A stretch of DNA of 64,000 nucleotides, taken from IMG/VR virus record IMGVR_UViG_3300029288_000063, positions 96,001-160,000 of that record; one strand, written 5' to 3'. The notes beneath the pieces are model-generated. The model saw only the letters and a program-made list of their open reading frames with translations, did not search any database and was not told the DNA's origin. The position numbers and the translations under genes are program-made. Positions 9,783 through 36,878 of this stretch are shown here, one piece after another (position 1 is the first letter of the stretch; every line of letters starts with the position of its first letter). Source of the stretch: a virus (lineage: Duplodnaviria; Caudoviricetes).

Positions 9783-9827
9783 TTTTTTCCAGATTTTTGT
9801 TGCACCCTCGATGCTTGGTTGTATAAT
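9783..9827 (+). promoter_or_regulatory. sigma70-like promoter heading tRNA block 1
   Basis: TTGCAC-16-TATAAT; first 21 nt identical to 27692-27712. Confidence 0.7.
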
Positions 9828-9877
9828 CTGTTTGAAATCGCCCATTGTGAGGGCGAACTTGTAGTGGAGAAAACAAA

Positions 9878-10006
9878 GTGCTTACTTTCCTGACCACCAC
9901 ATCATCGAACGGATTCTCGATGTCCCTCAACTGCGGTAATAAGCGCAGTCAGAGGCAAGGGCATATTACGTGCAAAATGCCCGGTGGTGGAAAGACGGAG
10001 ACCTGA
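9878..10006 (+). CDS. attenuator leader peptide 1 (42 aa)
   Basis: GGAG RBS, GTG start; 3' end pairs with the terminator 5' arm; codons match block-1 tRNAs. Confidence 0.75.
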   Translation: MLTFLTTTSSNGFSMSLNCGNKRSQRQGHITCKMPGGGKTET

Positions 10007-10073
10007 CGTAGTAGAGGGTTCTCATAAATGTCTTCCCGCCGCCGGAGCTTAAAAGTTCCGGCGGTTTTGTTTT
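9981..10073 (+). promoter_or_regulatory. antiterminator/terminator pair of attenuator 1
   Basis: 9981-9997 pairs with 10029-10045 (16/17 incl. GU); alternative terminator 10039-10048/10055-10064 plus T-tract. Confidence 0.75.
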
Positions 10074-10084
10074 GGGGGTGTGTC

Positions 10085-10264
10085 ATGCGGGAGTATGTTT
10101 TCACTGTTCGGGTTCGCCTTGAGGCGTTTGATGATGTAGAGGTTCGTCAACGTCTTGAAGAAGTTCGTAAGGCGGCATCCGGCGAAGTGGTAGAGGGAAT
10201 GAGTAGCGAGGTGTCCTTGCAAGAGGTTTTCAAAAACAAGGCTCCGAGGAAGTTGGTTCTTTAG
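10085..10264 (+). CDS. small hypothetical protein
   Basis: GGGGG RBS-like, 59 aa. Confidence 0.5.
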   Translation: MREYVFTVRVRLEAFDDVEVRQRLEEVRKAASGEVVEGMSSEVSLQEVFKNKAPRKLVL

Positions 10265-10350
10265 TCGCGGTGAGGTTTGGTTCGGGTGGTTGCGGTCCGC
10301 GCAGCGATAACCGTCCGAAAGAAAACTATACGGGCAAAGTTCCCGTGGAT

Positions 10351-10362
10351 GGTCTTTGACAA
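10351..10362 (+). promoter_or_regulatory. boxA antitermination site
   Basis: GGTCTTTGACAA, rrn boxA-like; repeated at 27959. Confidence 0.65.
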
Positions 10363-10396
10363 TCGAAGGAAAGTAGTGTACGCCGAAAAAAGCCCC

Positions 10397-10442
10397 CACG
10401 GGAAGGGGGCGTGATTGGCTATTCCCCCTTCCCGTGTTTTTT
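10397..10442 (+). terminator. terminator-like hairpin before first tRNA
   Basis: 13-bp perfect stem plus T-tract. Confidence 0.65.
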
Positions 10443-10454
10443 CTGTTTTGAACT

Positions 10455-10529
10455 GGGCCGGTAGCACAGTGGTAGTGCAGCGGATTCTTAATCCGAAGGT
10501 CGAGGGTTCAAATCCCTCCCAGCCCACCA
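10455..10529 (+). tRNA. tRNA-Lys(CTT)
   Basis: Cloverleaf, CCA. Confidence 0.92.
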
Positions 10530-10532
10530 AAC

Positions 10533-10608
10533 GGACGCGTAGCTCAGTAGGCAGAGCATCTGCCTTTTAAGCAGGTGGTCGTGGGTTCGATTCCCGCCGC
10601 GTCTACCA
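10533..10608 (+). tRNA. tRNA-Lys(TTT)
   Basis: Cloverleaf, CCA. Confidence 0.92.
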
Positions 10609-10611
10609 AAT

Positions 10612-10688
10612 GGGTATGTAGCTCAATTGCGTTGAGCATCCGGTTCTTACCCGGAAGGTTGGAGGTTCGAGTCCTCTCACACCTACCA
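10612..10688 (+). tRNA. tRNA-Lys(CTT), atypical D-loop
   Basis: Cloverleaf, loop TT-CTT-AC, CCA. Confidence 0.8.
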
Positions 10689-10689
10689 T

Positions 10690-10763
10690 TGGCGAGTCAT
10701 ATAATGGTATTATGCGCGGTTGTTACCCGCGTCATGGGGGTTCGACACCCTCCTCGCCAGCCA
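10690..10763 (+). tRNA. tRNA-Asn(GTT), divergent
   Basis: Cloverleaf, loop TT-GTT-AC, CCA. Confidence 0.8.
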
Positions 10764-10777
10764 TTTTTTTGACGCAT

Positions 10778-10854
10778 CCGGTGGTAGCTCAGTTGGTAGA
10801 GCATCTCTCTGATAAGGAGAAGGTTCGAAGGTTCAAGTCCTTCTCACCGGACCA
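10778..10854 (+). tRNA. tRNA-Ile(GAT)
   Basis: Cloverleaf, CCA. Confidence 0.9.
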
Positions 10855-10857
10855 AAT

Positions 10858-10933
10858 GTGCCCGTAGCACAACGGATAAGTGTATAAGGCTACGAACCTT
10901 AAGATGGGGGTTCAATTCCCTCCGGGCATACCA
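10858..10933 (+). tRNA. tRNA-Arg(ACG)
   Basis: Cloverleaf, CCA. Confidence 0.9.
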
Positions 10934-10985
10934 TTTTGAAAATCAAAGTCGCGAGACTTGTATAATAGTAACGATGGGTTTTTAT

Positions 10986-11094
10986 CAGCACGCTTCAGAC
11001 ATGGGTTACTTCTTTTCTCATACAAAAGACCTGACGGTTCGACTCCGTCGTTGGGTGGCCCCGGTAACGTCGCCTGTGTCGCTTTTTGGTGCTG
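10986..11094 (+). ncRNA. YrlA-like Y RNA, copy 1
   Basis: CACGCTTCAG..GGGTTACTTC..T-arm..TTTTGGTG frame. Confidence 0.65.
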
Positions 11095-11106
11095 GTTTTT
11101 CGGTTT

Positions 11107-11247
11107 GCGTCACACTTCAGGATGGACATACTTCTGACGCTTAATAGCCGGCTGCGGGTTCGATTCCCGTCGGTCAACTTCGGTTGGCTGTTGCTCATGG
11201 TTGAGCCGTTTGTTCGGTTGAGCCGTTCGTTCGACTTTTGGTGACGC
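11107..11247 (+). ncRNA. YrlA-like Y RNA, copy 2
   Basis: Same frame; T-arm precedes capped acceptor and D-like arm. Confidence 0.65.
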
Positions 11248-11258
11248 TTTTGTATTGC

Positions 11259-11332
11259 GACGGAGGAGTTGGGTTCGAGTCCCGACCGGAAGCCCATACG
11301 GGATTCCGTGGCGTAACAGGCAGCGTGCCGTC
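11259..11332 (+). ncRNA. permuted tRNA-like module without the long closing stem
   Basis: GACGG/CCGTC closing; T-arm, loop-capped acceptor, D-arm order. Confidence 0.55.
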
Positions 11333-11344
11333 ATCTTGTTTTTT

Positions 11345-11506
11345 TCCACACGCTTCAGCGATGGGTTACTTCCATGCTAAGGACGAGGTCGCAGGTTCGA
11401 ATCCTGCTCCCCCAACCCTTGCCCCTGTGATTCTGCGGGGGTATGGGCTGGGGGATGGCTCAGCGGTAGAGCGCGTAAACTAGCCTGTTGCGACTTTTGG
11501 TGTGGA
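11345..11506 (+). ncRNA. YrlA-like Y RNA, copy 3
   Basis: tRNA 3' half, hairpin, then tRNA 5' half inside the conserved stem. Confidence 0.75.
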
Positions 11507-11508
11507 TT

Positions 11509-11697
11509 TTATATTCTGTAGGCGATGTGGTGTCCGAGGCGTCGGAAGTATGATGCCATGCCGCAGACCGACTTTCTTGTGTCGAGGTCGAAGATTTCGG
11601 CGAGGAGGTCGAGGCTTTCGTTTGGAAACCATTCTGCGAAGATGGCGATTTCGTTTTGGTTCCATGTTGCGTGTTTGGTGCGTATTGCTGTTGCCAT
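11509..11697 (-). CDS. small putative DNA-binding protein
   Basis: AAGGAG RBS on minus strand; W-x-x-x-E helical pattern. Confidence 0.5.
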   Translation of the reverse strand: MATAIRTKHATWNQNEIAIFAEWFPNESLDLLAEIFDLDTRKSVCGMASYFRRLGHHIAYRI

Positions 11698-11775
11698 GAT
11701 ATTCTCCTTGAAAGGTGTGAGTTTCAGTATTTTATCCTACCATGTGTGTTTTGTAAAATATCTTGCTAAAATAAT

Positions 11776-11990
11776 GCCTCGGTGGCCTAACGGATAAGAC
11801 ACGACCCTCATGTCCTCGTAGCACAACGGATAGTGCATGCGGCTCCGAACCGCAAAATCCATGTTCGATTCATGGCGAGGATACCATTTTGTGGTATGGT
11901 TTCACGGTAAAGGAGTTCTCGTGAGAAGTCGTCCGTCTAGTGCAACTGCTGTAGGTCGTCATGTAGGTTCGATTTCTATCCGGGGTCCCA
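11776..11990 (+). pseudogene. tRNA-Arg split at the anticodon (halves 11776-11809 and 11952-11990)
   Basis: Halves complement in acceptor and anticodon stems. Confidence 0.7.
11812..11886 (+). tRNA. tRNA-Arg(CCG), nested in the split tRNA
   Basis: Cloverleaf, CCA. Confidence 0.88.
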
Positions 11991-12029
11991 AAAAAAGATT
12001 CGAAGAAGGTTCCAGTTTTTTCAAATATC

Positions 12030-12570
12030 CTCGATAGTGTGGTGTAGAATAGAACGAAAGGATTTTGACAAGCTACTGCGGTGTAAGTGCCGCCTCGGGT
12101 TGTGAAAAGGTCGGTCCAATCAACCGACCCAAGCGAACGGTTCGAGTCCGTCCAAGTTGGCAAGTAAAGTCGGCTGATTACCGAAAACACTTGTCGGGTT
12201 GGGTTCCCTCGGGTGAGGGCGAAATCGCCAAACCGACTGTTTTGTTCTTTGAAAACCACCGACAATTCGCCTAATGGGTTACGTCATCGGTGCCACCATC
12301 ACTGATGTACGTGTAAAACGCATAAGGCATCCCTAGTGAGTTGTCAACCGAGTCTTGTATGGTCGGCCGTTATATGGGATAGGTGGGTTTCATCGTTGTC
12401 GGTATACGATGAATTTAAGATTGGTGCCTCGTGGGATGTACGTTTGGCGCAAAATCGGGGTCTGCGGTTCGAGTCCGCAGTCGAAGAACCCGGAAACGGG
12501 AAAGGAATACCCCGGTGGGTGTAGCGGAGACAAATAGCCGGTAGCCAGCGTGGCGAACAAGCATCCCGTT
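12030..12570 (+). ncRNA. unassigned structured RNA region
   Basis: No credible ORF; many stems and T-loop-like GGTTCGAGTCC motifs. Confidence 0.4.
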
Positions 12571-12581
12571 TTGAAGTTTTT

Positions 12582-12647
12582 TTCGCACGCTTCTGTTGTG
12601 GGTTACTTCCTTTTGACGAAAATACCCATAACAACTTTTGGTGCGAA
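12582..12647 (+). ncRNA. minimal Y-RNA-like stem, copy 4
   Basis: Conserved frame without tRNA module. Confidence 0.55.
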
Positions 12648-12857
12648 TGTTCTTTGAAAACCACCGATGCACGGAAATAGCGTGTAGGAGCGACTCGGTC
12701 GACCCCCGTCGATTATGTTGCTTTGCCCCCAGTACCCCAAGTTACATGCTGAGCTGTGCGTCAACCGTGTCCTTGGTGTTGCGTCCCGCCCTTCGTGACG
12801 CCAAATGATAGGTGGGGTTCCTCGGTGGTCGGTGTGCCGGGGAGTTTTTTTTGAGTT

Positions 12858-13065
12858 CTTTGAAATCTGCTCTTGGACTGTAGTAGGAAGAACCAGCGAC
12901 ATCAATGAGAGGTCAATGCCGAACATGTCGTGGTGTAATGTAGCATAGCCACCATTGGGTGGAAGGTTCTTGTCGAGTCTTGACGAACAACGGCTTCCGA
13001 AAACACAGGGACATATCGCGGTCGCATGCAACCGTTGATGTGCTTGCCAAGGGTAGATTTCAGGG
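12858..13065 (+). ncRNA. rod-shaped ncRNA (6S-like candidate)
   Basis: 16-bp terminal stem, internal bubbles, inner stems. Confidence 0.4.
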
Positions 13066-13071
13066 AATTTT

Positions 13072-13136
13072 ATTCGCACTCTTCAGTGACGGGATACTTC
13101 TCATACAAGCGACCTGTTGCGATTCTTGGTGCGAAT
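13072..13136 (+). ncRNA. minimal Y-RNA-like stem, copy 5
   Basis: Conserved frame without tRNA module. Confidence 0.55.
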
Positions 13137-13186
13137 TTTGATTTCCCACGCTGACGGGTTGGCGTCCAGTGGGGTTTTGCAAACAT

Positions 13187-13263
13187 ACGCCCGTAGCTCA
13201 GTTGGATAGAGCGTCGGTTTCCTAAACCGAAGGGCAGCAGTTCAAATCTGCTCGGGTGTACCA
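13187..13263 (+). tRNA. tRNA-Arg(CCT)
   Basis: Cloverleaf, CCA. Confidence 0.9.
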
Positions 13264-13272
13264 AAATTTAAT

Positions 13273-13298
13273 GCGCCAGTAGCTCAGTGGTAGAGCAC
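13273..13298 (+). pseudogene. tRNA 5'-half remnant
   Basis: Acceptor strand plus D-arm only. Confidence 0.5.
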
Positions 13299-13326
13299 AA
13301 TAGAGGCGCTGTTTGGCTTAATAAAA

Positions 13327-13401
13327 GCGGGCATAGCCTAGTGGTCAGGCACCACCTTGCCAAGGTGGGTCACGCCGGTTCGACTCCGGTTGCCCGCTCC
13401 A
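13327..13401 (+). tRNA. tRNA-Gly(GCC)
   Basis: Cloverleaf, CCA. Confidence 0.9.
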
Positions 13402-13423
13402 ATATTGAAGTTTTTTGAAGCAT

Positions 13424-13497
13424 GGTGCATGAACCCAAATGGCGCGGGAACTGGCTGTGAACCAGTTGTTAGCGGGTTCGAATCCCGTCTTGCACCC
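13424..13497 (+). tRNA. tRNA-His(GTG)
   Basis: G-1, GTG anticodon; CCA not contiguous. Confidence 0.8.
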
Positions 13498-13620
13498 GGT
13501 CGACAAGGAGAAGCCTCCACGTGGCTCGGCTGGTAATCACCTAACGGTGAGCCAATGTCTCCTGATTTATTATGCCGGTTATACAATCGAGGAAAGGTTG
13601 TGACGTATTGCACCCCAAAT

Positions 13621-13696
13621 TCCCCTCTAGCTCAATCGGTAGAGCGTCTGGCTGTTAACCAGTAGGTTGCAGGTTCGAGTCCTGCGGGGGGAGCCA
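13621..13696 (+). tRNA. tRNA-Asn(GTT)
   Basis: Cloverleaf, CCA. Confidence 0.92.
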
Positions 13697-13699
13697 AAT

Positions 13700-13791
13700 G
13701 GAACGGTGGCAGAGAGGCTTATTGCACCGGTTTGCTAAATCGGAGGGCATCGTAAGGTGTCCCGTGGGTTCGAATCCCACCCGTTCCTCCA
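13700..13791 (+). tRNA. tRNA-Ser(GCT)
   Basis: Long variable arm, CCA. Confidence 0.9.
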
Positions 13792-13923
13792 TTCGATTCG
13801 GTGTATAATGAGTTGTCAGTCTCATGGAAACAAAAGACTCCAAGATAGTCTGTGATGCCGGGAGGAGTGCTTGGAGATGACAAAAACAAAGAAGCGAAAG
13901 TATGAAAGTTACCTTGAGTTTTT

Positions 13924-14013
13924 GGAGGGTTGGTCGAGTCTGGTTTATGGCACTGGTTTTGAAAACCAGAGACGTGAAAGCGTCCGGGGGTTCGAATCCC
14001 TCACCCTCCGCCA
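13924..14013 (+). tRNA. tRNA-Ser(TGA)
   Basis: Long variable arm, CCA. Confidence 0.9.
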
Positions 14014-14034
14014 AGTTTAAGGGGTTCTCAAACC

Positions 14035-14346
14035 ATGAGTGATAAAAAAGACCTTGGTGTTTTCGAAGACGGAGAGTTGGTTCCGATTCAGCCTGTTTGT
14101 AGTGGGCTGACAAGGTGTTGTCGGTGCAATGTGGAGTTGACGCCCGAGAACAATTCTGGTTGGGAGGTTTTTGTTTCGCCAACAAGAACAGCACCAGTTT
14201 GTAAAGAGTGCAATGTTGAGAGATGTAGCGTGTGCGGTGCCCCGATGACAAAAGAAAACTGGGGTGCCTTCTTGAAGGTCTCCGACGATACTCTTATGAT
14301 GTTTTGCAAGGGTTGCTACGAGGTTGAAAAAAGATTTAAGGGGTGA
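14035..14346 (+). CDS. Cys-rich hypothetical protein with internal duplication
   Basis: Two CxxC...T(P/K)EN..CxxC units. Confidence 0.55.
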   Translation: MSDKKDLGVFEDGELVPIQPVCSGLTRCCRCNVELTPENNSGWEVFVSPTRTAPVCKECNVERCSVCGAPMTKENWGAFLKVSDDTLMMFCKGCYEVEKRFKG

Positions 14347-14433
14347 CCGTTGTTTTGGGGTTCGTTGTAACACCTCTCACAAAAAAAAAGAATCAAACCC
14401 CACTTTTAGGAGAACCAATGAGCGTAAATTGAA

Positions 14434-14509
14434 GGACCTATAGCTCAGTGGTCAGAGCGGGCGGCTCATAACCGTCTGGTCGAAGGTTCAATCCCTTCTG
14501 GGTCCACCA
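14434..14509 (+). tRNA. tRNA(CAT), Ile2-like
   Basis: Cloverleaf; body resembles lysidine tRNA-Ile2. Confidence 0.8.
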
Positions 14510-14529
14510 ATAATCAGAGAGGGTTTTTC

Positions 14530-14853
14530 GTGTGGTGGCATTATGCGTTGTGGGTTCCGACTGTCGTTGTGTATTACGTTGGCTATTCGTGGCTGAGTAA
14601 GCAAAACAACGATATAGGCGGCAAGTGGTTCTGGTTCATGTTCGCCTATGGCGCGGCTTGCCCGCTTTGGCTGATTGTTTCCCGCATATCGAAAAATCTT
14701 TTATTTGATGGCGTCTTATATGACAACCTGATGTTTTTGACGTATGTCGGGGCGATGATATTTCTCGGGGCGCATGCGAGGATGACCGCGCACCAGTGGG
14801 TTGGACTTGGGTTAGTGGTGTTGGGTTCGGTCTTGCTTCGCTGGGAATTGTGA
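14530..14853 (+). CDS. small multi-pass membrane protein (SMR/DMT-like)
   Basis: About 4 TM segments, 107 aa. Confidence 0.5.
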   Translation: MWWHYALWVPTVVVYYVGYSWLSKQNNDIGGKWFWFMFAYGAACPLWLIVSRISKNLLFDGVLYDNLMFLTYVGAMIFLGAHARMTAHQWVGLGLVVLGSVLLRWEL

Positions 14854-14858
14854 AATCT

Positions 14859-14946
14859 GGAGACGTGTGATAATGGTATTCAGCCTGCCTCGAAAGCAGG
14901 TGCTCCAGCAATGGAGTTGGGGGTTCGAGTCCCTCCGTCTCCGCCA
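14859..14946 (+). tRNA. tRNA-Ser(CGA)
   Basis: Long variable arm, CCA. Confidence 0.88.
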
Positions 14947-14953
14947 AACACAA

Positions 14954-15042
14954 GGAGAGGTTGCCTAATTGGTAAGGCACCGCATTGGAAGTGCGGCGTG
15001 GTGATGAGTCATGTGCAGGTTCGAACCCTGTCCTCTCCGCCA
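14954..15042 (+). tRNA. tRNA-Ser(GGA)
   Basis: Long variable arm, CCA. Confidence 0.88.
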
Positions 15043-15202
15043 AATTTATAATCGCCTATGGTCGGGCGTTGGGGGTGCCATTAGAAACGCCAGCATATGG
15101 CTGTGCAAGCGTTTCTGACGGTGTCTCGGTTTGACAGTACCAAGCAGCCTCCCAGTGGCGTCAGACGGGCACGGTGCGAATCGTGGCGAATGCTTGGGAC
15201 CT

Positions 15203-15277
15203 GCCGACAAAGCATAGATGGCGATGCACCGGTTTCGTAAACCGGAGAGGTGGGTTCAAGTCCCTCTGTCGGCTCCA
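15203..15277 (+). tRNA. tRNA-Thr(CGT)
   Basis: Cloverleaf, CCA. Confidence 0.85.
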
Positions 15278-15329
15278 TATTTATGTAATAGTTGTTGTTG
15301 TATAGAGGTGGTTTTCAACGGTGAAAAAT

Positions 15330-15404
15330 GCCTCCGTAGCACAGCGGATAGTGCACCGGATTTCTAATCCGGCTACAGGGGTTCGATTCCCTTCGGGGGT
15401 GCCA
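15330..15404 (+). tRNA. tRNA-Arg(TCT)
   Basis: Cloverleaf, CCA. Confidence 0.9.
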
Positions 15405-15492
15405 AAAATGATTGATGCAACTTTGCGTCATTGGTTCTGTTCCTCCTTCATGTGCGCGGGCGGTGAGCGCCCGCCTTTGGAGGAGGCATACC

Positions 15493-15804
15493 ATGCAAGA
15501 GAAGGTGAAAGAAAAAAGTCGTCGTAGGCGGAATGATGTTGCTCGGATGAAAGAGCGTGCGCGTCGTGTTGTTTGTGGGAACGAACCGGCTCGTGGGTTT
15601 GTAATGTATAACCTCGATGGTTCGTTGGTTTCCCGCGAGGAGTGGGTTGAGGATTGTGCCGTTCGTTGCGCGAATAATATGGCAAAATGTTCGTGTGCAA
15701 TGTGTGGAAATCCTCGCCATCGGAAGTATAGTAAAGGGTCGGAACGTTTAACCATGCAGGAACGGCGACAACTACAAGACGGGGACTTATACGAGGAAGA
15801 ATGA
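15493..15804 (+). CDS. basic hypothetical protein (CSCxxCGNPR)
   Basis: GGAGG RBS; Zn-like motif. Confidence 0.6.
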   Translation: MQEKVKEKSRRRRNDVARMKERARRVVCGNEPARGFVMYNLDGSLVSREEWVEDCAVRCANNMAKCSCAMCGNPRHRKYSKGSERLTMQERRQLQDGDLYEEE

Positions 15805-16025
15805 TGTCTACCGAAAAGAAAGATCGTCACGCCCCGCCGCCATTAGGGTTGATTGCGTTGGTCGTGTTGGTGCCGATTGTAATTCTTATCGGAATTGCAG
15901 GGTTTGTCGGGTGGCTGTCTGTCCGTCTTGGTTTTGTGGAATGGTATCTTGGTCCGGTTGTCGGTATCGCTGTGGATGCCATTCTGTTGGGGATTCTTTG
16001 GTTGATGAAAAAGATGCGGGCGTAG
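15801..16025 (+). CDS. small 2-TM membrane protein
   Basis: Hydrophobic; coupled to previous gene. Confidence 0.5.
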   Translation: MMSTEKKDRHAPPPLGLIALVVLVPIVILIGIAGFVGWLSVRLGFVEWYLGPVVGIAVDAILLGILWLMKKMRA

Positions 16026-16089
16026 CTCAATGGCAGAGTGCCAGCTTCCCAAGCTGGTTATGAGGGTTCGATTCCCTTCGCCTGCTCCA
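16016..16089 (+). tRNA. tRNA-Gly(CCC)
   Basis: Cloverleaf, CCA. Confidence 0.92.
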
Positions 16090-16373
16090 AATTTGGCGGG
16101 GGGCGTATTATGGATTCGATTCAAGCCGCTATTTCACGTTTGTTTGTTTTGGTAGAAAAAGCAGAATCCAACCAAGAAGACATTTCGGTAAGCCGATATG
16201 TATGTCGGTTGTGCGGTGAAAGTCGACAGTCACTTTGCGAGTGTATAGATCACATTGTTGGTCTGCATTCTGAAAGGCTGAATGAGGTTCGCAACGCTGT
16301 AGATGTGATATGTAAGCGGGTGTAGCTCAATGGTAGAGCGCCAGCCGTATTAGAAAGGATTTGGGATAGATTA

Positions 16374-16447
16374 GCGCCTATGGTGTAGTGGCCGCATCTT
16401 TGCCTTCCAAGCAAAGGGTCCGTGTTCAAATCACGGTAGGCGCTCCA
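16374..16447 (+). tRNA. tRNA-Gly(TCC), nested
   Basis: Cloverleaf, CCA. Confidence 0.88.
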
Positions 16448-16522
16448 AACCAATAAATTCTTTATATTCGACCCGCTGTTTTGGAACCCGTAATTGGGTT
16501 CCAAAACAGGAGGGGGGTCGAC

Positions 16523-17185
16523 ATGAAGAGTGATGAACGACAAGAGGCAAGAAAACTCAGGGGACAGGGATTATCTGTCAAAGAAATAACAAGGAGAGTC
16601 GGAGTCGCAAAGTCGTCAGTGAGTCGCTGGGTCAGAGACATCGAGCTTACTGACGAACAAAAAATGAACCTCCGACCATGCACAGTTGCTTTTGGAATCA
16701 ATCGATTAAGGTATTTTTCTGAACTTCGGGACTCATACAGAGAAGTAGGGAGAGACCAAGCCAAGAAAAACAACCTTTTGCATGCAATGGGGTGCATGCT
16801 CTACTGGGCAGAAGGATGGCACACAAACAATCGGAACTGTATGAAGTTTTCAAACTCAAGTGTTCCGATGATGAAATTGTTTCTGAAGTTCCTGCGGAAT
16901 GAGATGTCTGTAAAAGATAATGATGTCATCATCAAGATACATTGTTATACAGACAAAAGGAGCGCAAGCGACATTGAATCGCACTGGCTTAACGAACTCG
17001 GTCTTCCGCAAAACTGTTTGAGGAAAACGGTGGCAGACAAAAGGCCGGGGTGTACGCAGAACAAACGCAACAACATTCTGGAATGGGGAACATGCCATCT
17101 GATTATACATGACGTGAGAGTCGTTCAAGGCATCTACGGCGCAATCGAGGAGTATGGGAAATTCAGGAATGGTGCATGGGATTGA
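16523..17185 (+). CDS. HTH + LAGLIDADG-like putative homing endonuclease
   Basis: N-terminal HTH; GCMLYWAEG..FSNS motif; A-rich relative to flanks. Confidence 0.6.
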   Translation: MKSDERQEARKLRGQGLSVKEITRRVGVAKSSVSRWVRDIELTDEQKMNLRPCTVAFGINRLRYFSELRDSYREVGRDQAKKNNLLHAMGCMLYWAEGWHTNNRNCMKFSNSSVPMMKLFLKFLRNEMSVKDNDVIIKIHCYTDKRSASDIESHWLNELGLPQNCLRKTVADKRPGCTQNKRNNILEWGTCHLIIHDVRVVQGIYGAIEEYGKFRNGAWD

Positions 17186-29387: not shown

Positions 29388-29395
29388 AATATATG

Positions 29396-29718: not shown

Positions 29719-29735
29719 TTTGTTGCGTTTTATGT

Positions 29736-29810: not shown

Positions 29811-29813
29811 AAT

Positions 29814-29890: not shown

Positions 29891-29898
29891 AAATTTAC

Positions 29899-29974: not shown

Positions 29975-30060
29975 AATATAGGCGTATAGCTCAATTGGTA
30001 GAGCACCGGTTCCAAAAACCTTCGGTTTGATAAATAATTTTATAATCTCGTGTCTGTTGA

Positions 30061-30600
30061 ATGGAGACAGACATGAGGAAGACAAAGTGGACAGATGAAG
30101 AATTGTCGTTGTATGTTGCCGAGTCGTTTGGTTTTTCTGACCTTTTGAGAAAGTTAAAACTTTCAGTATCTAGTGGAAATTACAAGACAATAAGAAGACG
30201 TATAGAAAGTCTTTGTTTGGATACTAGGCATTGGACTGGAAAGTCTCAATGTGGAGATCGAAACCCAAGTTTTCGTCACAGAATTCCGCTTGAACAGATT
30301 TTGGTAGAGAATGGGTTTTATAGGAATCTGCCAAGATTGAAACAGAGGTTGATTAAAGAGGGTTTGTTAGAAAACAAGTGTGCTATTTGCGGACTTAGTT
30401 CTGTGTGGAATAATAAGAAAATTGTTATGATTTTGGATCATGTAAATGGTGAATCATTTGATCATAGATTTGAAAATTTGAGACTTGTTTGTCCGAATTG
30501 TAATAGTCAGATTGATACTTTTGCTGGAAGAAACAAGAAGAAAAAACGAACGGATGCAGCAAGTGGGTGTTGCGGTCAGACTCCAAATCTGACGTCTTAG
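30061..30600 (+). CDS. HNH homing endonuclease
   Basis: CAICG..LDHVNG..DHRFENLRLVCPNCNSQ; AT-rich. Confidence 0.88.
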   Translation: METDMRKTKWTDEELSLYVAESFGFSDLLRKLKLSVSSGNYKTIRRRIESLCLDTRHWTGKSQCGDRNPSFRHRIPLEQILVENGFYRNLPRLKQRLIKEGLLENKCAICGLSSVWNNKKIVMILDHVNGESFDHRFENLRLVCPNCNSQIDTFAGRNKKKKRTDAASGCCGQTPNLTS

Positions 30601-30627
30601 CGGGTTCGATTCCTGTCATCCGTGCCA
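30550..30627 (+). tRNA. tRNA-Trp(CCA), nested, divergent
   Basis: ACGGATG/CATCCGT acceptor, CT-CCA-AA loop, GCCA. Confidence 0.8.
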
Positions 30628-30685
30628 ATCTTGTAATCCGTTCAAAACCGGCGGTTGGGGGTTCGAGTCCCTCTGCGCCTGCCAT

Positions 30686-30759
30686 AGTCGTGTCGCTTAA
30701 TGGTAAAGCGTCTCCTTGACGTGGAGAAGCTGAAGGTTCGATTCCTTCCATGACTACCA
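30686..30759 (+). tRNA. tRNA-Val(GAC)
   Basis: Cloverleaf, CCA. Confidence 0.85.
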
Positions 30760-30767
30760 TATTCAAA

Positions 30768-30846
30768 CGGGGCGTAGCTCAGCTTGGTTGAGAGCGCGTG
30801 TTTCGGGTACACGAGGTCGCAAGTTCAAATCTTGTCGCCCCGACCA
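30768..30846 (+). tRNA. tRNA-Pro(CGG), variant
   Basis: Cloverleaf, CCA. Confidence 0.85.
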
Positions 30847-30964
30847 AATTATGAACCCTATGCACATGACCGGACACTTGTGTGTAGGAGCAACGACGCC
30901 CATTATGGAGAGCGGTGGGTGTAGCCGAAAGGCAGTGCGGTAAAACGCCGAAGCTCCTGTGAAT

Positions 30965-31041
30965 CGGGGTGTGGCTCAGCTTGGTAGAGCGCCGCGTTCG
31001 GGACGCGGAGGTCGGAGGTTCAAATCCTCTCACCCCGACCA
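30965..31041 (+). tRNA. tRNA-Pro(CGG)
   Basis: Cloverleaf, CCA. Confidence 0.92.
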
Positions 31042-31102
31042 ATTTCAATGTATATCGGGTTTCCGGTATACTGTGGTATACATGGGTAGAAACGACTATA
31101 AT

Positions 31103-31179
31103 CGGACTGTGGCTCAGTTTGGTAGAGCGCGTGACTGGGGGTCACGAGGCCGCAGGTTCAAATCCTGTCAGTCCGACCA
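31103..31179 (+). tRNA. tRNA-Pro(GGG)
   Basis: Cloverleaf, CCA. Confidence 0.92.
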
Positions 31180-31248
31180 AAATTATTTCTTCGTTGAGCT
31201 TTTTCATGTCGCCGCGATAGGTTTGTAAGGTATTATATTGTAGGTGTT

Positions 31249-31956
31249 TTGAAAAGGACGAAGATTATGCCGCCTCCTGTTGTGAAATGTTGCATCTGTG
31301 GTGAAGAGGTTCTCAAGGCTCAAACCTATGCTATTGCAGGCGGTCGTGCCTGCAAGAAGCATGAAGGCGTTGTTGAGCAATCGCAGCAGATTCAACAGAA
31401 AGCAATCGACGATAAGTCGAGGCAGCGTGCCGCAGAAGACGAGCGTGAACGTCGGCGTGAAGAGCGAATGAACATGCCGCATGCTTCAATGGAAGCAAAC
31501 CTGTCGTTTGCGAGGGATAACTGTTGGTGCTGTGGTCGTGTTGGATTGGAACACAGCATGTTTATGCAGCTCCAGTTGGCTGCGATGGAAAAGGCTCAGA
31601 ATGAGAATATCAATGTGTTTGGTGAGCTTGTTGGAGACCACGCTTTCAAAAACATGTTGCTTGCCGTGTTAAAGCGGCTTGGTGCTGAGTGTGTTTTCAA
31701 AAGGTTTGACCTGAACGATGAGATGTTTGAGCGGTACGTTCAGTGGGAAGCGCGGATAGACCATCGAGTGCGGGATATTGTTCGCTTTGGTCGTGTAATT
31801 CAGCTTTGTGGTGATTGTCAAAACGGCACAGGTATCAAGTTTGACTTCGAATCCATCATTCCGAAGGTGCCGCTGCAAACGCTCTTATTGGTTGGTTCTG
31901 CTTATGAGAACAGTGACTTCCATAAGCATGTTCAAGAGATTGCGAAAAATATATAA
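31249..31956 (+). CDS. hypothetical Zn-binding protein
   Basis: 235-aa ORF with CxxC motifs. Confidence 0.6.
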   Translation: MKRTKIMPPPVVKCCICGEEVLKAQTYAIAGGRACKKHEGVVEQSQQIQQKAIDDKSRQRAAEDERERRREERMNMPHASMEANLSFARDNCWCCGRVGLEHSMFMQLQLAAMEKAQNENINVFGELVGDHAFKNMLLAVLKRLGAECVFKRFDLNDEMFERYVQWEARIDHRVRDIVRFGRVIQLCGDCQNGTGIKFDFESIIPKVPLQTLLLVGSAYENSDFHKHVQEIAKNI

Positions 31957-31957
31957 C

Positions 31958-32035
31958 GGGCGCGTAGCATAGCTGGTCGAATGCGCTTGCTTTACAAGCA
32001 AGAGACCGAAGGTTCAAATCCTTCCGTGCCTACCA
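31958..32035 (+). tRNA. tRNA-Val(TAC)
   Basis: Cloverleaf, CCA. Confidence 0.88.
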
Positions 32036-32038
32036 AAT

Positions 32039-32114
32039 GGGGTCGTAGCTCAACTGGGAGAGCGTCTGCATGGCATGCAGAAGGTAGAGGGTTCGAATCC
32101 CTCCGGCTCCACCA
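32039..32114 (+). tRNA. tRNA-Ala(GGC)
   Basis: G3-U70, CCA. Confidence 0.92.
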
Positions 32115-32716
32115 AATTCAAGGTGGTTGGGTTGGCATAGATTACCCTGCCACAAGAGTTTTCCTCTGAGGAACACGTTTCTTATGAGTGATATTGATTA
32201 TCTTCGTCATACTTTGTCTGGTCGAAACATGGTAACGAGGAATCCCGACCTATGCGTGTGCGCTTTTGCGTGTGCGTGTGTGTATCGGGATGGTTCGCGG
32301 TTTCGGTGCCGTATAATAGACGAGGTAAACAAGGAAATTCAAAGTAGGATTGACGACTACAATCAGGCGGTTGAGCGGTGTCGCAGGGAAAAGCAGATTA
32401 CCGGGAAAGAGTGGGGTGCTTGAGAGTTTTATGAGAAATGCCCACAACATCTATTATTCCGAGGACGACTTGTTCCCTGAACATCGTGTTCCGCCGTCCT
32501 GTCCGTATCTTACCGAGTTTGTGATTCTCAGCAACCCCGAGGTAAACGATTTGCTTGTGTCGGGGGTTTTGTTGTGAGATATTTTGAGCACGCCAAGGTG
32601 AATTTGGTTGTCGCTTTCAAGGCCGCCCTGTTGTGTGTGTTTCATGTCGCACATGCCTTTGTCCCGTGTCGGTGGACCGAGCATGATTGGTGGGGGTTGA
32701 ACCTTACAAAAGATTC

Positions 32717-32793
32717 CGGAGAGTAGTTCAGCTTGGTAGAACGCCTGCTTTGGGAGCAGGAGGCCGCAGGTTCGAATCCTGTCTCTCCGACCA
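32717..32793 (+). tRNA. tRNA-Pro(TGG)
   Basis: Cloverleaf, CCA. Confidence 0.92.
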
Positions 32794-32820
32794 AATTCAA
32801 ACACCCTCAAGGAGTTGGCG

Positions 32821-33087
32821 ATGTATGATGAGGAAATAAACAAAATGGTGGAAGAATTGTTTGACGCTTCCACAATGGAAGGGTCGGAGACAGGCGAGAC
32901 GTGGAGTGCGCTTGCGCAGTTTGCGAATGCCCTACATTCGGATTTCGTCTCAGAGGAGTTTGTTGAAGCCCTCAAGAAAGAGATTCGTCGGCAGCATGAT
33001 GACTTGAAGGCTAATTTCCGGATTGTCGAAGAAGAACGTCGCGAAGAGGTTGTCAGGAAGTCCAGAACGCTGGAATGTATCGCGTAG
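32821..33087 (+). CDS. hypothetical protein
   Basis: AAGGAG RBS. Confidence 0.55.
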   Translation: MYDEEINKMVEELFDASTMEGSETGETWSALAQFANALHSDFVSEEFVEALKKEIRRQHDDLKANFRIVEEERREEVVRKSRTLECIA

Positions 33088-33142
33088 CGGCGAGTGGCGG
33101 AATAGGAAGATGTAAGGGACTTAAAATCCTATCTCTCCGCCA
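33087..33142 (+). pseudogene. tRNA-Leu(TAA) remnant
   Basis: D-arm and anticodon present, T-arm deleted. Confidence 0.55.
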
Positions 33143-33237
33143 AATTATAATCCTGTGGAGAAACTATGTCTGTTTTTGATAGGTCACCGGATTGGTTGAA
33201 AAAACTCATCGGTTGGATTTGTGGTCCGTAGGGGTTC

Positions 33238-34080
33238 GTGATGTCCGTGCGCTGGTTGCTTGAAAAAGACGTGTTTTCTGAAGACTTGGAGCCGCTGAAA
33301 CAAGAGATTGTTCGTCAGGGGCACTCGTTCACAGAGATGGGGTACATCCCGTTTGGTGGCGGCGAATATGAGGACATTGTAGGCAAAGATTGTACCCTGT
33401 TTTATGGGTCGTTGAATCTCGCGTTGACTCTGTCGCGGCTGCCGTGCCCGCCGGTTATCTTTTGTGACCGGCCGAACTACGAATGCACGAAGTATTACGC
33501 CTATTTTGGCGAGTACCTGTTGAATCAGAAATATGTCATGCTGCCATTCTCCGAGTTGCGTCGTCGAAAGGATTGGTTGTTCGACAAGATTGGTGAGAAT
33601 GGGAGTATGTTTGTTCGCCCGAGTTCAGGGGCGAAAATCTTTACCGGCATGGTGATTCAAAACGACTCTTTTGAGCACGACTACAAGTTGCTTGGATTCT
33701 ATGATGTCGCGCCGCACGCTATGGTCGTTGTTGGTCAGCCTCATAATATCGTTCGTGAGTGGCGTTTGGTTATCGCGGATGACGAGGTTGTTGCCGGAAG
33801 CAAGTATCACGATGGAACCCTGAGCTTGATGTATGAGGGGTTTCCTGAGTCTGTTGGAGAGTTGGCGAATCGTATCTTGTCCGAAACGTCGTATCGTCCT
33901 GACCCCGTGTGGACTATGGATTTTTGCGAAACGAAAGATGGCAGGGTTCATCTCTTAGAAATCGGCGGGTTTAGCTGTGCCGGTTTGTACTTATGCGAGA
34001 TGGCTCCTATTGTCTCAAACGTCTCACGAATCGCAGAAAGCGTGTTTAACGGTGAATATGATGGGCGCGTGGCGGAATAG
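33238..34080 (+). CDS. ATP-grasp domain protein (DUF4343/R2K-like)
   Basis: FVRP..K.FTG, EWR, MD..LLEIG..S.AGLY. Confidence 0.75.
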   Translation: MMSVRWLLEKDVFSEDLEPLKQEIVRQGHSFTEMGYIPFGGGEYEDIVGKDCTLFYGSLNLALTLSRLPCPPVIFCDRPNYECTKYYAYFGEYLLNQKYVMLPFSELRRRKDWLFDKIGENGSMFVRPSSGAKIFTGMVIQNDSFEHDYKLLGFYDVAPHAMVVVGQPHNIVREWRLVIADDEVVAGSKYHDGTLSLMYEGFPESVGELANRILSETSYRPDPVWTMDFCETKDGRVHLLEIGGFSCAGLYLCEMAPIVSNVSRIAESVFNGEYDGRVAE

Positions 34081-34149
34081 GCAGACGTAAGGGACTTAAA
34101 ATCACTTATCCATAGTGTCGTGTGGGTTCGAGTCCCACCGCGCCTAACA
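34063..34149 (+). tRNA. tRNA-Leu(TAA), possibly degenerate
   Basis: Anticodon-stem mismatch; ends ACA. Confidence 0.6.
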
Positions 34150-34164
34150 ACTAGGAGTGTGTTT

Positions 34165-34509
34165 ATGTCTGTTGACGGATGTTCGTGTGGTGGCGAGTGC
34201 GGGTGCAAGGGGGAAGAAAATATCCGTCGTGCCAAGCCCGGTGAGCTTGTGCGTTGTCGGTGGTGCGAAGAACTGCCGTTGATTATTTGGGATAAGGATT
34301 ACAACAATCTGAAGATTTGTTGTGATGGCGGCAACGGTGCAAAAGAGTGTTCGGCGTATCCGTCCACATCAAATGGAGGGTTTGGGCCGTCAACGGGACA
34401 TATTGTCAGTAGGCAATGGTCTGTCCTCAATTCGGAGTTGTCGCCACAAGACGCAAGGGATAGTGAAAAGCTCCACGAAGAGGTAAGTAGGAAACTTGAA
34501 GAAAAATAG
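34165..34509 (+). CDS. Cys-rich hypothetical protein
   Basis: AGGAG RBS. Confidence 0.5.
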   Translation: MSVDGCSCGGECGCKGEENIRRAKPGELVRCRWCEELPLIIWDKDYNNLKICCDGGNGAKECSAYPSTSNGGFGPSTGHIVSRQWSVLNSELSPQDARDSEKLHEEVSRKLEEK

Positions 34510-34556
34510 CCATTTTTTCTTCTGTAAACGATGTCGGTTCAAAGGAGAAAAACAAA

Positions 34557-34880
34557 ATGGCTCATAAGTTATTCACAAACGAAGTTAGAACCCGCGTGGG
34601 CAATTCAAAAAACTGGCGTCTTGCTTGTGAGTTGCGGTTTGAGGGTTCTGGTTCGTGGTGTTTTGATTGCCGTGAGTCTGGTTTCGAGATTGATGTTGCG
34701 TTCTGTGATGATGGTAATGTGTCGGCGTCCGTGTTTGCGCTTGGTGATGACGAGCAGGAGCCGATTTCATGTGTCGAACGGAAGGTATGTACAGAGGCGC
34801 AGCTTGGCACCGTGATTTCTGAAGCCGTGAAAAACGCGGTTAAGAGTCCGATGCTGAAGCATCGTCTCCTTGAGGTTTGA
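34557..34880 (+). CDS. hypothetical protein
   Basis: AAGGAG RBS. Confidence 0.55.
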   Translation: MAHKLFTNEVRTRVGNSKNWRLACELRFEGSGSWCFDCRESGFEIDVAFCDDGNVSASVFALGDDEQEPISCVERKVCTEAQLGTVISEAVKNAVKSPMLKHRLLEV

Positions 34881-35006
34881 GGTTAGTAACCGAGTACGAT
34901 TAGCCGTCCGAAAGGTGAAGTTCCCTCGGCGAAATTGAGTGAAACAGGTTCGGGTGGCACCCGTTCAATGTCGCGATAAAGTAGCCGAAAACCATTTTTG
35001 ACATAT

Positions 35007-35081
35007 TGCGGGGTGGAGCAGTGGCAGCTCGTCAGCCTCATAAGCTGAAGGTCGAGGGTTCGAATCCCTCCTCCGCTACCA
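35007..35081 (+). tRNA. initiator-like tRNA-fMet(CAT)
   Basis: Unpaired 1-72, A11-U24, CCA. Confidence 0.85.
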
Positions 35082-35257
35082 ATTTTTCTCGTGCGTCGGC
35101 ACAGTGGACCCCACAAAGCAGTTCCCTGTGTCTAGTGTATGGTTGCATGTGGGTGTAGCCAAGATGGGTCACAGTCCCGTCGGCACGAGAGTTTTTTTCT
35201 ATGAGTGTGGTATGACCTTTTTTTGATTTGTGCCATAGGAAGAGGAGGTATCTTCCT

Positions 35258-36283
35258 ATGGTGCAAAAGGTTGTATGTCGTATTGAAGATTTGTCTGAGA
35301 AGGTCGGTTGGTATATTAGCCGTCCTGTTTTGGATTTTGAAACTTCAAGGTTGTTAATTGCCGTCAACAAGCAAGTTACGCTTGATATGGCGGAGGCTCT
35401 TGCACGACGTGGTGTTGATGTTGTTCAGGTGACTCCAGAGCCGATAGATGTTGAAAACATCGAGCCGGGAAAAGATGGCTCGATGATGGCGAAAAAGTCC
35501 AAAAAGAAGTTGATGGATTCTTTGGCTGAAATAACGATGTCTGTTCGTGGTAGACGGAAGACGGTAAACATGAAGAAATCGTTGTCGAACTTTGTTCTTG
35601 GCAACGTAGAACGAGCAATCATAGGTGTAATAGAGTCAATAAGTAACAATCCAACGTCGTGTGTGTATTTGAGTATGATTGAGGATGAAGATCCGTATTT
35701 GATTCATCATGGTGCAAACACAACGTATCTTGCGTTGTGCCTGATAAACAAGTCGCCTTATGTGAGGATGTTATTTCGAGACCCGGAAAAGGGTTTGCCA
35801 AAATTCAATGCGCCGGGTATGTCGTGTGACTATTCGGATTACGTTCCGCTTGGTATGGCGGCGATGCTGCATGACATTGGCAAAGTTTTCATGCTGGGTA
35901 CGGTGAAGGAAAACAAGAGGTTGACGGATGCAGACCAAGAGTCTTGGGAAACAATCCGTAAACACCCGAAGCTTGGCCACGATGTTTTGTTTGGGAAAAA
36001 GATAGACTCTCATGGGTTGTTGGGTATAAAATATCACCATGAGAACTTTGATGGGTCTGGTTATCCCTTTGGGATAAAGGGGTATAAGATTCATCTATAT
36101 GCGCGGATTTTGCGGGTCGTGGATAGTTTCGACGCGGCGACCTCAAAGCGTCCGGGCAGGGAACAGAAGTCTCCGGAAGAGGTGTGCGTCGAGATGTTGA
36201 AATTAGCGCGGACGCATTATGACCCGGAGATTTGTGCGCACTTTGTCGCGATGATTTTAGGTAAGGAAATTCCGGGGTCGTAG
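35258..36283 (+). CDS. HD-GYP domain phosphodiesterase
   Basis: LHDIGK..HP..G..HHENFDGSGYP..VVDSFDA. Confidence 0.88.
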   Translation: MVQKVVCRIEDLSEKVGWYISRPVLDFETSRLLIAVNKQVTLDMAEALARRGVDVVQVTPEPIDVENIEPGKDGSMMAKKSKKKLMDSLAEITMSVRGRRKTVNMKKSLSNFVLGNVERAIIGVIESISNNPTSCVYLSMIEDEDPYLIHHGANTTYLALCLINKSPYVRMLFRDPEKGLPKFNAPGMSCDYSDYVPLGMAAMLHDIGKVFMLGTVKENKRLTDADQESWETIRKHPKLGHDVLFGKKIDSHGLLGIKYHHENFDGSGYPFGIKGYKIHLYARILRVVDSFDAATSKRPGREQKSPEEVCVEMLKLARTHYDPEICAHFVAMILGKEIPGS

Positions 36284-36349
36284 CTCAACTGGAAGAGCGT
36301 CTGCTTTGCAAGCAGAAGGTCAGGGGTTCGAATCCCCTCGGCTCCACCA
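36274..36349 (+). tRNA. tRNA-Ala(TGC)
   Basis: G3-U70, CCA. Confidence 0.92.
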
Positions 36350-36395
36350 AATTCAAAGTTGTTTGGTTTGTTCTTTCGGTTATTTTTTGTGATAT

Positions 36396-36481
36396 GGGTA
36401 AATGGCGAAATGGCAGACGCGCAAGGTTTAGGACCTTGTAGTCGAAAGACTGTGAGGGTTCAAGTCCCTCTTTGCCCACCA
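36396..36481 (+). tRNA. tRNA-Leu(TAG)
   Basis: Long variable arm, CCA. Confidence 0.9.
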
Positions 36482-36696
36482 CAACAAAGGATACACATAT
36501 GAACGTTTTCTGTAATGAATGTAAGTATTTGACAGATGATCTTCGTTGTGATTCGCCGTGCAACCTCCAAATAAAACTTTTTGGATTGGTTCTTTATGGA
36601 GGAGTTAAACCGTCGGTGCAAAATATGTATAATGACTGTGTGTTGTTTGAACGTGGAAAGGTTCCCCAAAAGGAATCTCGTTAAAATCTTCGAATA

Positions 36697-36782
36697 GGTC
36701 AAGTGGCGGAACGGCATACGCGGCAGACTCAAAATCTGCTGGTCGCAAGATCGTGAGGGTTCAAGTCCCTCCTTGACCACCA
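36697..36782 (+). tRNA. tRNA-Leu(CAA), second copy
   Basis: Long variable arm, CCA. Confidence 0.9.
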
Positions 36783-36793
36783 TTTTTCATCTT

Positions 36794-36878
36794 GGGCGAG
36801 TGGCGGAATCGGCAGACGCACGGGATTTAAAATCCCGTATCTTAAGATGTGCGGGTTCAAGTCCCGCCTCGCCCACCA
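36794..36878 (+). tRNA. tRNA-Leu(TAA)
   Basis: Long variable arm, CCA. Confidence 0.9.

Follow-up and report, generated by a model that had tools for sequence, protein, structure and literature searches.

A 64,000-nucleotide stretch from an uncultured giant phage (Caudoviricetes; bases 96001-160000 of the 253,102-bp IMG/VR record IMGVR_UViG_3300029288_000063, which is estimated to be 75% complete), hereafter called the window, contains two blocks of transfer RNA (tRNA) genes that are each headed by a cassette with the same order of parts: a promoter, a ribosome-binding site (RBS) with a short leader open reading frame (ORF), an intrinsic terminator, and then a small hairpin ahead of a 17-nucleotide boxA that is the same in both (table 1). 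The codons of each leader match the tRNAs of the block behind it, and the 3' part of the leader is complementary to the terminator. The cassettes are likely to act by ribosome-mediated attenuation that is generalized to many codons and followed by boxA-dependent processive antitermination, and the phage probably raises tRNA synthesis when the codons of a block are read slowly. A first-pass annotation of the window had placed an attenuator in front of each block as the gate of that block. The attenuators are supported by the codon match, the geometry of the switch, the covariation of leaders and blocks in other genomes, and the boxA, whereas exclusive gating is improbable, as both blocks contain extended -10 promoters that are strongly over-represented.

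Leader codons, a proposed terminator switch, and boxA

A total of 55 tRNA genes and one transfer-messenger RNA (tmRNA) gene were identified within the window using ARAGORN, all on the + strand and in agreement with Rfam, which at the gathering threshold returned tRNA and tmRNA only. As described in the first-pass annotation, the tRNA genes split cleanly into two amino-acid sets (27 + 27 tRNAs). The first block serves Lys, Asn, Ile, Arg, Gly, His, Ser, Thr, Cys, Gln, and Met, the second block serves Tyr, Ala, Val, Glu, Leu, Phe, Asp, Trp, and Pro, and Met is the only amino acid common to both blocks. The Met-type tRNA at position 35007 of block 2 carries a 1:72 mismatch as found in initiators and therefore looks like an initiator, which agrees with the formylmethionine tRNA previously assigned to this block.

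The two leaders contain every amino acid of their respective blocks, as had been claimed. Leader 1 covers 11 out of 11 amino acids of block 1 and 34 of its 41 non-initiator codons belong to the block set; leader 2 covers nine out of nine amino acids of block 2 with 21 out of 28 non-initiator codons in the set. A Fisher test of the two leaders against the two amino-acid sets, which had been proposed as a check of block membership, gives p = 3e-6. Random peptides of proteome composition reach the same enrichment together with full coverage with P = 1e-5 (leader 1) and P = 6e-4 (leader 2). When all ORFs of the same length within the 253 kb genome are ranked by anticodon coverage, leader 1 is among the top 3 of 587 and leader 2 is the first of 1022. 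Based on permissive wobble rules, 22 out of 24 distinct block 1 anticodons and 19 out of 20 distinct block 2 anticodons are sampled by the corresponding leader (21 out of 24 and 16 out of 20 based on strict wobble rules); the block 1 anticodons missed by leader 1 under permissive wobble are Ile-tat and Arg-ccg. Furthermore, the number of codons per amino acid follows the number of tRNA genes (rho = 0.62 for leader 1 and 0.85 for leader 2), a correlation that is partly expected because of codon degeneracy.

Conserved parts in an alignment of the two cassettes are the promoter, the terminator's 3' arm with its T-run, and the small hairpin with boxA; the leader ORFs share no sequence similarity with each other. 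The T-rich 21-mer of the promoters occurs exactly twice (9783 and 27692), both in the window and in the genome, and is absent from shuffled sequences. Together with the exact copies of the boxA 17-mer, this bears out the proposal that a common cassette of promoter, leader, terminator, and boxA heads both blocks. An RBS with a short ORF and an intrinsic terminator are located between the promoter and the first tRNA in both cassettes. Terminator 1 consists of a 12-bp stem with eight GC pairs followed by a T-run. No separate promoter was found between terminator 2 and the first tRNA of block 2, where the best match to the consensus is boxA itself. A second in-frame ATG is possible for leader ORF 2 at position 27762.

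The duplex between segments 2 and 3 of cassette 1 has a predicted energy of -30.1 kcal/mol, which is reached by none of 500 dinucleotide shuffles of the leader. The switch was modeled by placing a ribosome footprint of 30 nucleotides at each codon in turn and folding the nascent transcript as far as the terminator loop. In the folds of cassette 1, the 3' part of the ORF holds the terminator arm when the ribosome stalls on codons 2-31 and the arm is released from codon 32 to the stop codon. In those of cassette 2, the arm is held at stalls on codons 2-16 and is free with the ribosome near the stop codon. An early ORF segment is paired with the antiterminator strand in both untranslated full-length folds, which corresponds to the classical 1:2 pairing. 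The distance from the leader stop codon to the terminator stem is 23-36 nucleotides in all eight cassettes that were examined, including those from other genomes.

The boxA 17-mer is present as an exact match only at positions 10350 and 27958 of the window. A search of 185,579 species genomes returned 73 exact matches, about the number expected by chance. In four bacterial ribosomal RNA (rRNA) operons (L057, L082, L029, and L054), the identical 17-mer is located between the spacer tRNAs and the 23S gene, ~100-135 nucleotides before 23S, which is the position of the 16S-23S spacer boxA in these genomes. The phage cassettes carry a hairpin ahead of boxA and thus match the boxB-boxA order of rrn operons. 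Based on the identity to the rrn spacers and the order of hairpin and boxA, the sequence gives good support for reading the motif as an antitermination site of the rrn type. A Nus antitermination complex would be loaded at the phage boxA, and a polymerase modified there would pass the second terminator of cassette 1. Two more boxA-like cores are located within block 1 (12245-12255 and 12650-12660), and the core motif has five matches compared with 0.47 expected. A third promoter of the P1/P2 type together with a boxA copy (three mismatches) is found at 67.6 kb of the genome (G000:C1:67601-68321, locus L107). Downstream of this copy, an ORF-free stretch of ~400 nucleotides is followed by a small Lys-rich ORF and a 92-nucleotide Met-type tRNA, and no Rfam family other than the tRNA was detected within 67601-68321.

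Taken together, the parts suggest the following course of events. A sigma-70-type promoter with a T-rich upstream element would start a transcript that opens with a short translated leader ORF, the codons of which would sample nearly every tRNA species of the block behind it. The antiterminator strand, predicted to consist of the last ORF codons (cassette 1) or of the bases around the stop codon (other cassettes), is complementary to the 5' arm of the terminator. During fast decoding, a ribosome at the stop codon would cover the antiterminator strand, the terminator would fold, and transcription would end. If an aminoacyl-tRNA is scarce, the ribosome would stall in the sensing part of the leader, leaving the antiterminator strand free to capture the terminator arm, and the polymerase would read on. 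The boxB-like hairpin and the rrn-type boxA would then presumably load the Nus complex and support passage through 9-12 kb of structured and mostly untranslated tRNA array, including the internal terminators. The net effect would be a feedback in which slow reading of its own codons leads to more of that tRNA set. The parts and their order, the codon match, the complementarity, the covariation of leaders and blocks across genomes, and the boxA identical to rrn spacers are directly visible in the DNA; we infer the translation of the leaders, the stall-dependent read-through, the loading of Nus factors, and the biological purpose.

Cassettes in other genomes

The claim that the leaders are written in the codons of their blocks predicts that leader content should covary with block content in other genomes. 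Five outside cassettes with different tRNA partitions and matching leaders were identified in two phages and one bacterial metagenome-assembled genome (MAG). When the seven leaders were scored against the seven blocks, the true pairing was the best of 5040 permutations.

A search of viral contigs with the boxA 17-mer led to a complete phage of 96.5 kb (G001) that contains 30 tRNAs in three blocks, each with its own promoter, mini-ORF, and terminator, and with an amino-acid partition unlike that of the window. One leader, rich in Leu, Ser, and Tyr, stands before a block of Leu, Leu, Leu, Ser, Tyr, Met, and Asp tRNAs. The second leader contains all nine of Asn, Gln, Gly, Thr, His, Ala, Phe, Pro, and Arg and is followed by exactly those tRNAs; it samples 12 out of 12 anticodons, including three for Thr and both for Gln, and the best of 432 background ORFs samples 11. 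The third leader contains all eight of Trp, Met, Lys, Arg, Glu, Val, Ile, and Gly, is followed by the tRNAs for those amino acids, and has the identical boxA after it. The second phage (L016) is a 210 kb relative with an RNA ligase that is 52% identical to the one in the window. It carries a leader of 26 codons and a terminator directly before Phe, Gly, Lys, Val, Arg, Ser, Ser, Trp, Leu, Ala, Thr, and Thr tRNAs; the leader covers 10 out of 10 downstream amino acids, with 22 out of 25 non-initiator codons in the set. Complementarity of the antiterminator was reached by 8, 20, and 8 of 500 shuffles for the three G001 cassettes and by 12 out of 500 for L016, which is significant, and it was not significant in the two MAG cassettes. 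The leader start codon in these phages is located 6-10 nucleotides after the -10 hexamer (L015 16059-16133, L011 3096-3167, and L016 3315-3395). The G001 and L016 leaders are probably read from leaderless or nearly leaderless mRNAs, unlike the RBS-bearing leaders of the window.

A Bryobacterales MAG contig (L097, G002:C10:70001-88000) contains a promoter, leader, terminator, and boxA before 24 tRNAs, and the leader holds 15 out of the 18 amino acids served by these tRNAs. The array is flanked by genes of housekeeping type (PAP2, an acyltransferase/AMP-binding/MFS fusion, and PspA) on one side and by an integrase fragment on the other side. The array may belong to an integrated element, or it may be a bacterial tRNA island under the same control. 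A short Acidobacteriaceae MAG contig contains a leader, terminator, boxA, and Trp-Met arrangement that resembles the third cassette of G001. In phiCbK, a cultured phage of Caulobacter, intrinsic terminators annotated in GenBank are located directly before tRNA blocks with small ORFs ahead of them, one of which is gp083; the match in composition is weaker than in the window.

Other searches returned no further cassettes of this kind. A DNA search of 50,697 phage records with both cassettes gave no match, scans of viral and metagenome contigs for the promoter 21-mer gave chance matches without tRNAs only, and six out of the seven matches to the 17-mer in viral contigs were due to chance. The proteins flanking the arrays of the window (a 263 amino acid ORF and the hybrid histidine kinase) had no relatives in viral contigs, the protein adjoining the G001 array found G001 itself only, and the DNA of the tRNA blocks returned only generic tRNA matches when compared with phages.

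Further features of the window

The coordinates of the cassettes, the tRNA blocks, and the associated features are summarized in table 1.

Table 1. Features of the two cassettes and tRNA blocks (positions within the window)
Feature	Position	Strand	Description
Promoter P1	9783-9827	+	T-rich 21-nt element 9783-9803, -35 at 9800-9805, 16-nt spacer, extended -10 at 9820-9827
Leader ORF 1 and RBS	9866-10006	+	RBS 9866-9869; GTG 9878, stop 10004-10006; 42 codons
Segment 1, cassette 1	9885-9900	+	Codons 3-8; pairs with segment 2 in the minimum free energy fold of the untranslated full-length leader
Segment 2 (antiterminator strand), cassette 1	9980-9996	+	Within leader codons 35-40; pairs with 10030-10045
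Segment 3 and intrinsic terminator 1	10030-10075	+	Segment 3 10030-10045; stem 10038-10065; T-run to 10075
59-codon ORF	10085-10264	+	Between terminator 1 and boxA; no counterpart in cassette 2
boxB-like hairpin and boxA, cassette 1	10329-10366	+	Hairpin 10329-10347; boxA 10350-10366
Second terminator after boxA, cassette 1	10392-10449	+	Stem 10397-10436, T-run 10437-10449; no counterpart in cassette 2
tRNA block 1	10455-22111	+	27 tRNAs, 24 distinct anticodons, 11 amino acids, small ORFs interspersed (ARAGORN, Rfam)
Internal extended -10 motifs	10959-10966, 13802, 19024 (block 1); 28666, 36626 (block 2)	+	Over-represented motif
Strong internal terminator	12814-12848	+	Inside block 1, downstream of boxA
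Bidirectional terminator	22119-22137		8 nt past the final block 1 tRNA
Lone suppressor tRNA	25632-25706	+	Anticodon cta; between blocks 1 and 2
Promoter P2	27692-27736	+	Identical 21-nt element 27692-27712, -35 at 27709-27714, 16-nt spacer, extended -10 at 27729-27736
Leader ORF 2 and RBS	27764-27863	+	RBS 27764-27767; ATG 27774, stop 27861-27863; 29 codons
Segment 2, cassette 2	27837-27851	+	Codons 22-26; segment 1 partner 27792-27807; pairs with 27891-27903
Segment 3 and intrinsic terminator 2	27891-27930	+	Segment 3 27891-27903; stem 27897-27918; T-run to 27930
boxB-like hairpin and boxA, cassette 2	27937-27974	+	Hairpin 27937-27955; boxA 27958-27974
tRNA block 2	27997-36878	+	27 tRNAs, 20 distinct anticodons, 9 amino acids; plus Met-type at 35007 (ARAGORN)

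The 8-nucleotide extended -10 motif of P1 is present in 10 copies within the window compared with 0.68 expected (15-fold), nine of them on the + strand, and probably marks a class of phage promoters. The three internal sites named in the first-pass annotation are real, and the two in block 2 are additional; further sites outside the blocks include 5487, 53711, and 63494. The internal sites lack the upstream element of P1 and P2, and most of them are located ahead of small protein genes that are embedded in the arrays. Small ORFs ahead of the internal terminators at 12814 and 10397 show no enrichment and were discounted. A competing 6-bp hairpin (10392-10410), which is terminator-like on the opposite strand too, overlaps the terminator after boxA.

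The 59-codon ORF of cassette 1 has no match in Pfam. Glu, Val, Leu, and Ala are frequent in it, and block-2-type residues make up 62%, a value equalled by 8 out of 640 background ORFs. It was rejected as a second sensor (for block 2), as the enrichment is only ~2 standard deviations and its stop codon is located 134 nucleotides ahead of the next terminator. The start of the suppressor tRNA gene, on which the first-pass annotation is silent, overlaps the last bases of a gene for a hybrid histidine kinase/response regulator with a CHASE4 domain (23470-25641), and TAG remains the stop codon in 42 out of 166 long ORFs.

Block 2 is followed by the tmRNA gene (37990-38334) and by a gene encoding an OB-fold RNA ligase (39420-40586), and it contains genes encoding an R2K ATP-grasp protein (33238-34080) and an HD-domain protein (35228-36283). 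These four genes suggest a tRNA-maintenance neighborhood, but the fit of the RNA ligase and the tmRNA to this theme is circumstantial. Upstream of the cassettes, an ORF of 662 amino acids (5524-7512) contains a LAGLIDADG endonuclease domain (residues 134-299) and weak C-terminal matches to DNA methylases and may represent a homing endonuclease or an intein inside a methylase gene.

Alternative explanations and known systems

Several observations weigh against stall-controlled attenuation of the two blocks. The pairing between the 3' end of the leader and the 5' arm of the terminator, which the first-pass annotation had described for both cassettes, is clear in cassette 1 and marginal in cassette 2, where the duplex (-19.2 kcal/mol) is present but reached by 36 out of 500 shuffles, and in three outside cassettes the antiterminator is weak or chance-like. 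Synonymous codons had been described as varied in the leaders. Most isoacceptors are indeed sampled, but a variety beyond chance is only suggestive: synonymous choice alone gives such anticodon coverage with P = 0.056 (leader 1) and P = 0.134 (leader 2) under permissive wobble and P = 0.008 and P = 0.075 under strict wobble. About one fifth of the leader codons (7 out of 41 and 7 out of 28) belong to the other block, and cross-talk would follow. The promoter and boxA copy at 67.6 kb comes without a leader or terminator, and some tRNA blocks of related phages lack a leader: no such cassette is present in L017 or Myxococcus phage Mx1 or before the first tRNA block of G004. The internal promoters are predicted to be able to transcribe most tRNAs of both blocks independently, and because of them the attenuators probably tune tRNA transcription and are not its only gate; the leaders match the whole block and not just the first few tRNAs, which suggests that transcription from P1 and P2 extends over the entire block. 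Finally, as attenuation senses charged tRNA, amino-acid starvation would also induce the blocks.

The ORFs could be non-regulatory, with a strong promoter, a leaky terminator or insulator, and boxA as the working parts and the match in composition as chance or an artefact. Short ORFs are abundant (580 of at least 25 amino acids overlap 40 kb), the amino-acid sets partly follow first-base codon classes so that nucleotide skew could mimic a match, and some tRNA blocks have no leader. Yet each leader ranks at the extreme top of the same-length ORFs in its own genome, both leaders of the window have an RBS like real genes of the phage, all seven cassettes match their blocks across five different partitions (1 out of 5040 permutations), and the spacing between stop codon and terminator is constant over eight cassettes, so that a chance match is highly improbable. 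The leaders might also encode functional micropeptides, with terminators that merely end small genes and other promoters that drive the tRNA blocks. Leader 2 opens with a hydrophobic, signal-like stretch, internal promoters are present, and one such ORF of phiCbK is annotated as the hypothetical protein gp083. This explanation can hardly be credited, as the two leaders are dissimilar although their promoters and terminators are paralogous, their composition tracks the tRNA sets across unrelated phages, and block 2 has no separate promoter between the terminator and its first tRNA.

Two further explanations retain a regulatory role for the leaders. The logic might be reversed or indirect, such that translation of the leader is needed for read-through and coupling blocks Rho or the hairpin as in pyrBI. 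Control of the coupling type exists in bacteria (pyrBI), and untranslated tRNA arrays are natural targets for Rho, which is consistent with the boxA. However, with the stop codon 23-36 nucleotides before the stem, a terminating ribosome is too distant to melt the terminator, which argues against pyrBI-type logic, and a pyrBI-type mechanism was rejected on the distance between stop codon and hairpin. In addition, the complementary strand would be hidden by a ribosome at the stop codon, which predicts termination under fast translation, and the codon match between leader and block would be left unexplained; a reversed logic is thus very unlikely. The same attenuator could instead respond to the amino-acid supply or the general elongation rate, similar to a growth-rate control of the phage. 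The trp and his attenuators respond to aminoacyl-tRNA and not to the tRNA itself, the leaders sample many amino acids, and the promoter and boxA copy features of rRNA operons. A general gauge would need neither two leaders with complementary amino-acid sets nor leaders that change with the block content in other genomes, and we consider it rather unlikely.

The arrangement has the structure of a leader-peptide attenuator, and its novelty lies in the tRNA genes as targets and in the 9-11 amino acids that are sampled. The leaders of the ilvGMEDA (Ile/Leu/Val), thr (Thr/Ile), trp, his, leu, and phe operons likewise combine a promoter, a short ORF enriched in certain codons, mutually exclusive hairpins, and a read-out of the ribosome position. 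These amino-acid operon leaders contain runs of one to three amino acids and control biosynthetic enzymes, whereas the leaders described here cover 9-11 amino acids and about 20 isoacceptors, most of which appear once or a few times. Unlike the enterobacterial amino-acid leaders, the cassettes are found in a phage, would regulate tRNA genes, and have a boxA after the putative attenuator; biosynthesis or synthetase genes, the usual targets of attenuators, are replaced by 27 tRNAs per block. The pheST operon of E. coli with its pheM leader is another example of leader-peptide control over a translation component that serves the leader's own codons, but it controls one aminoacyl-tRNA synthetase for one amino acid and not the tRNAs themselves for many amino acids. 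Read-through of an intrinsic terminator also depends on the state of tRNA in T-box riboswitches, which precede genes with a role in translation. A T-box binds one uncharged tRNA directly and without translation, whereas an ORF with an RBS is found here, and a T-box was rejected on the presence of this ORF and on the Rfam search, in which neither the T-box nor the leader families (his, thr, trp, leu, and phe) gave a match at E up to 1 within 9700-10460 and 27600-28000. The antitermination sites of rrn operons (boxB-boxA-boxC with NusB/NusE) and the lambda nut sites likewise have a hairpin and boxA shortly after the promoter region of a long operon for stable RNA; the boxA described here differs in that it is part of a phage tRNA array and is located downstream of a putative attenuator.

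To our knowledge, the regulation of phage tRNA genes is largely unknown, and tRNA genes are generally thought to be controlled by their promoters. No description of attenuators that control tRNA genes was found in searches of the full-text literature. What the window contributes is a clean case with two blocks, the connection to a boxA identical to that of rrn operons, and a possible case from a bacterial chromosome.

Slow reading of the block codons could be caused by the loss of host tRNAs to anticodon nucleases, by degradation of host RNA, by a mismatch between the codon usage of phage and host, or by the amino-acid supply. A broader view, which we put forward only tentatively and regard as doubtful at present, is that the cassettes form a modular sensor of decoding speed on phage tRNA arrays and some bacterial tRNA islands, in which the leader is rewritten when tRNAs are gained, lost, or moved and rRNA-type antitermination is hijacked, and which serves as an inducible replacement of host tRNAs lost to anticodon nucleases or shut-off. 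The rrn-identical boxA suggests that phages copy the complete transcription strategy of rRNA operons for their stable RNAs. If stall-controlled attenuation holds true, decoding speed would feed back directly on the supply of tRNAs, multiplexed over about 20 isoacceptors within about 40 codons, and the cassette would be a compact natural sensor for the availability of individual tRNAs. It would explain the grouping of isoacceptors in blocks, make it possible to predict from the sequence which tRNAs form one functional unit for a phage, and place phage tRNA arrays within the arms race with defences that cleave tRNAs.

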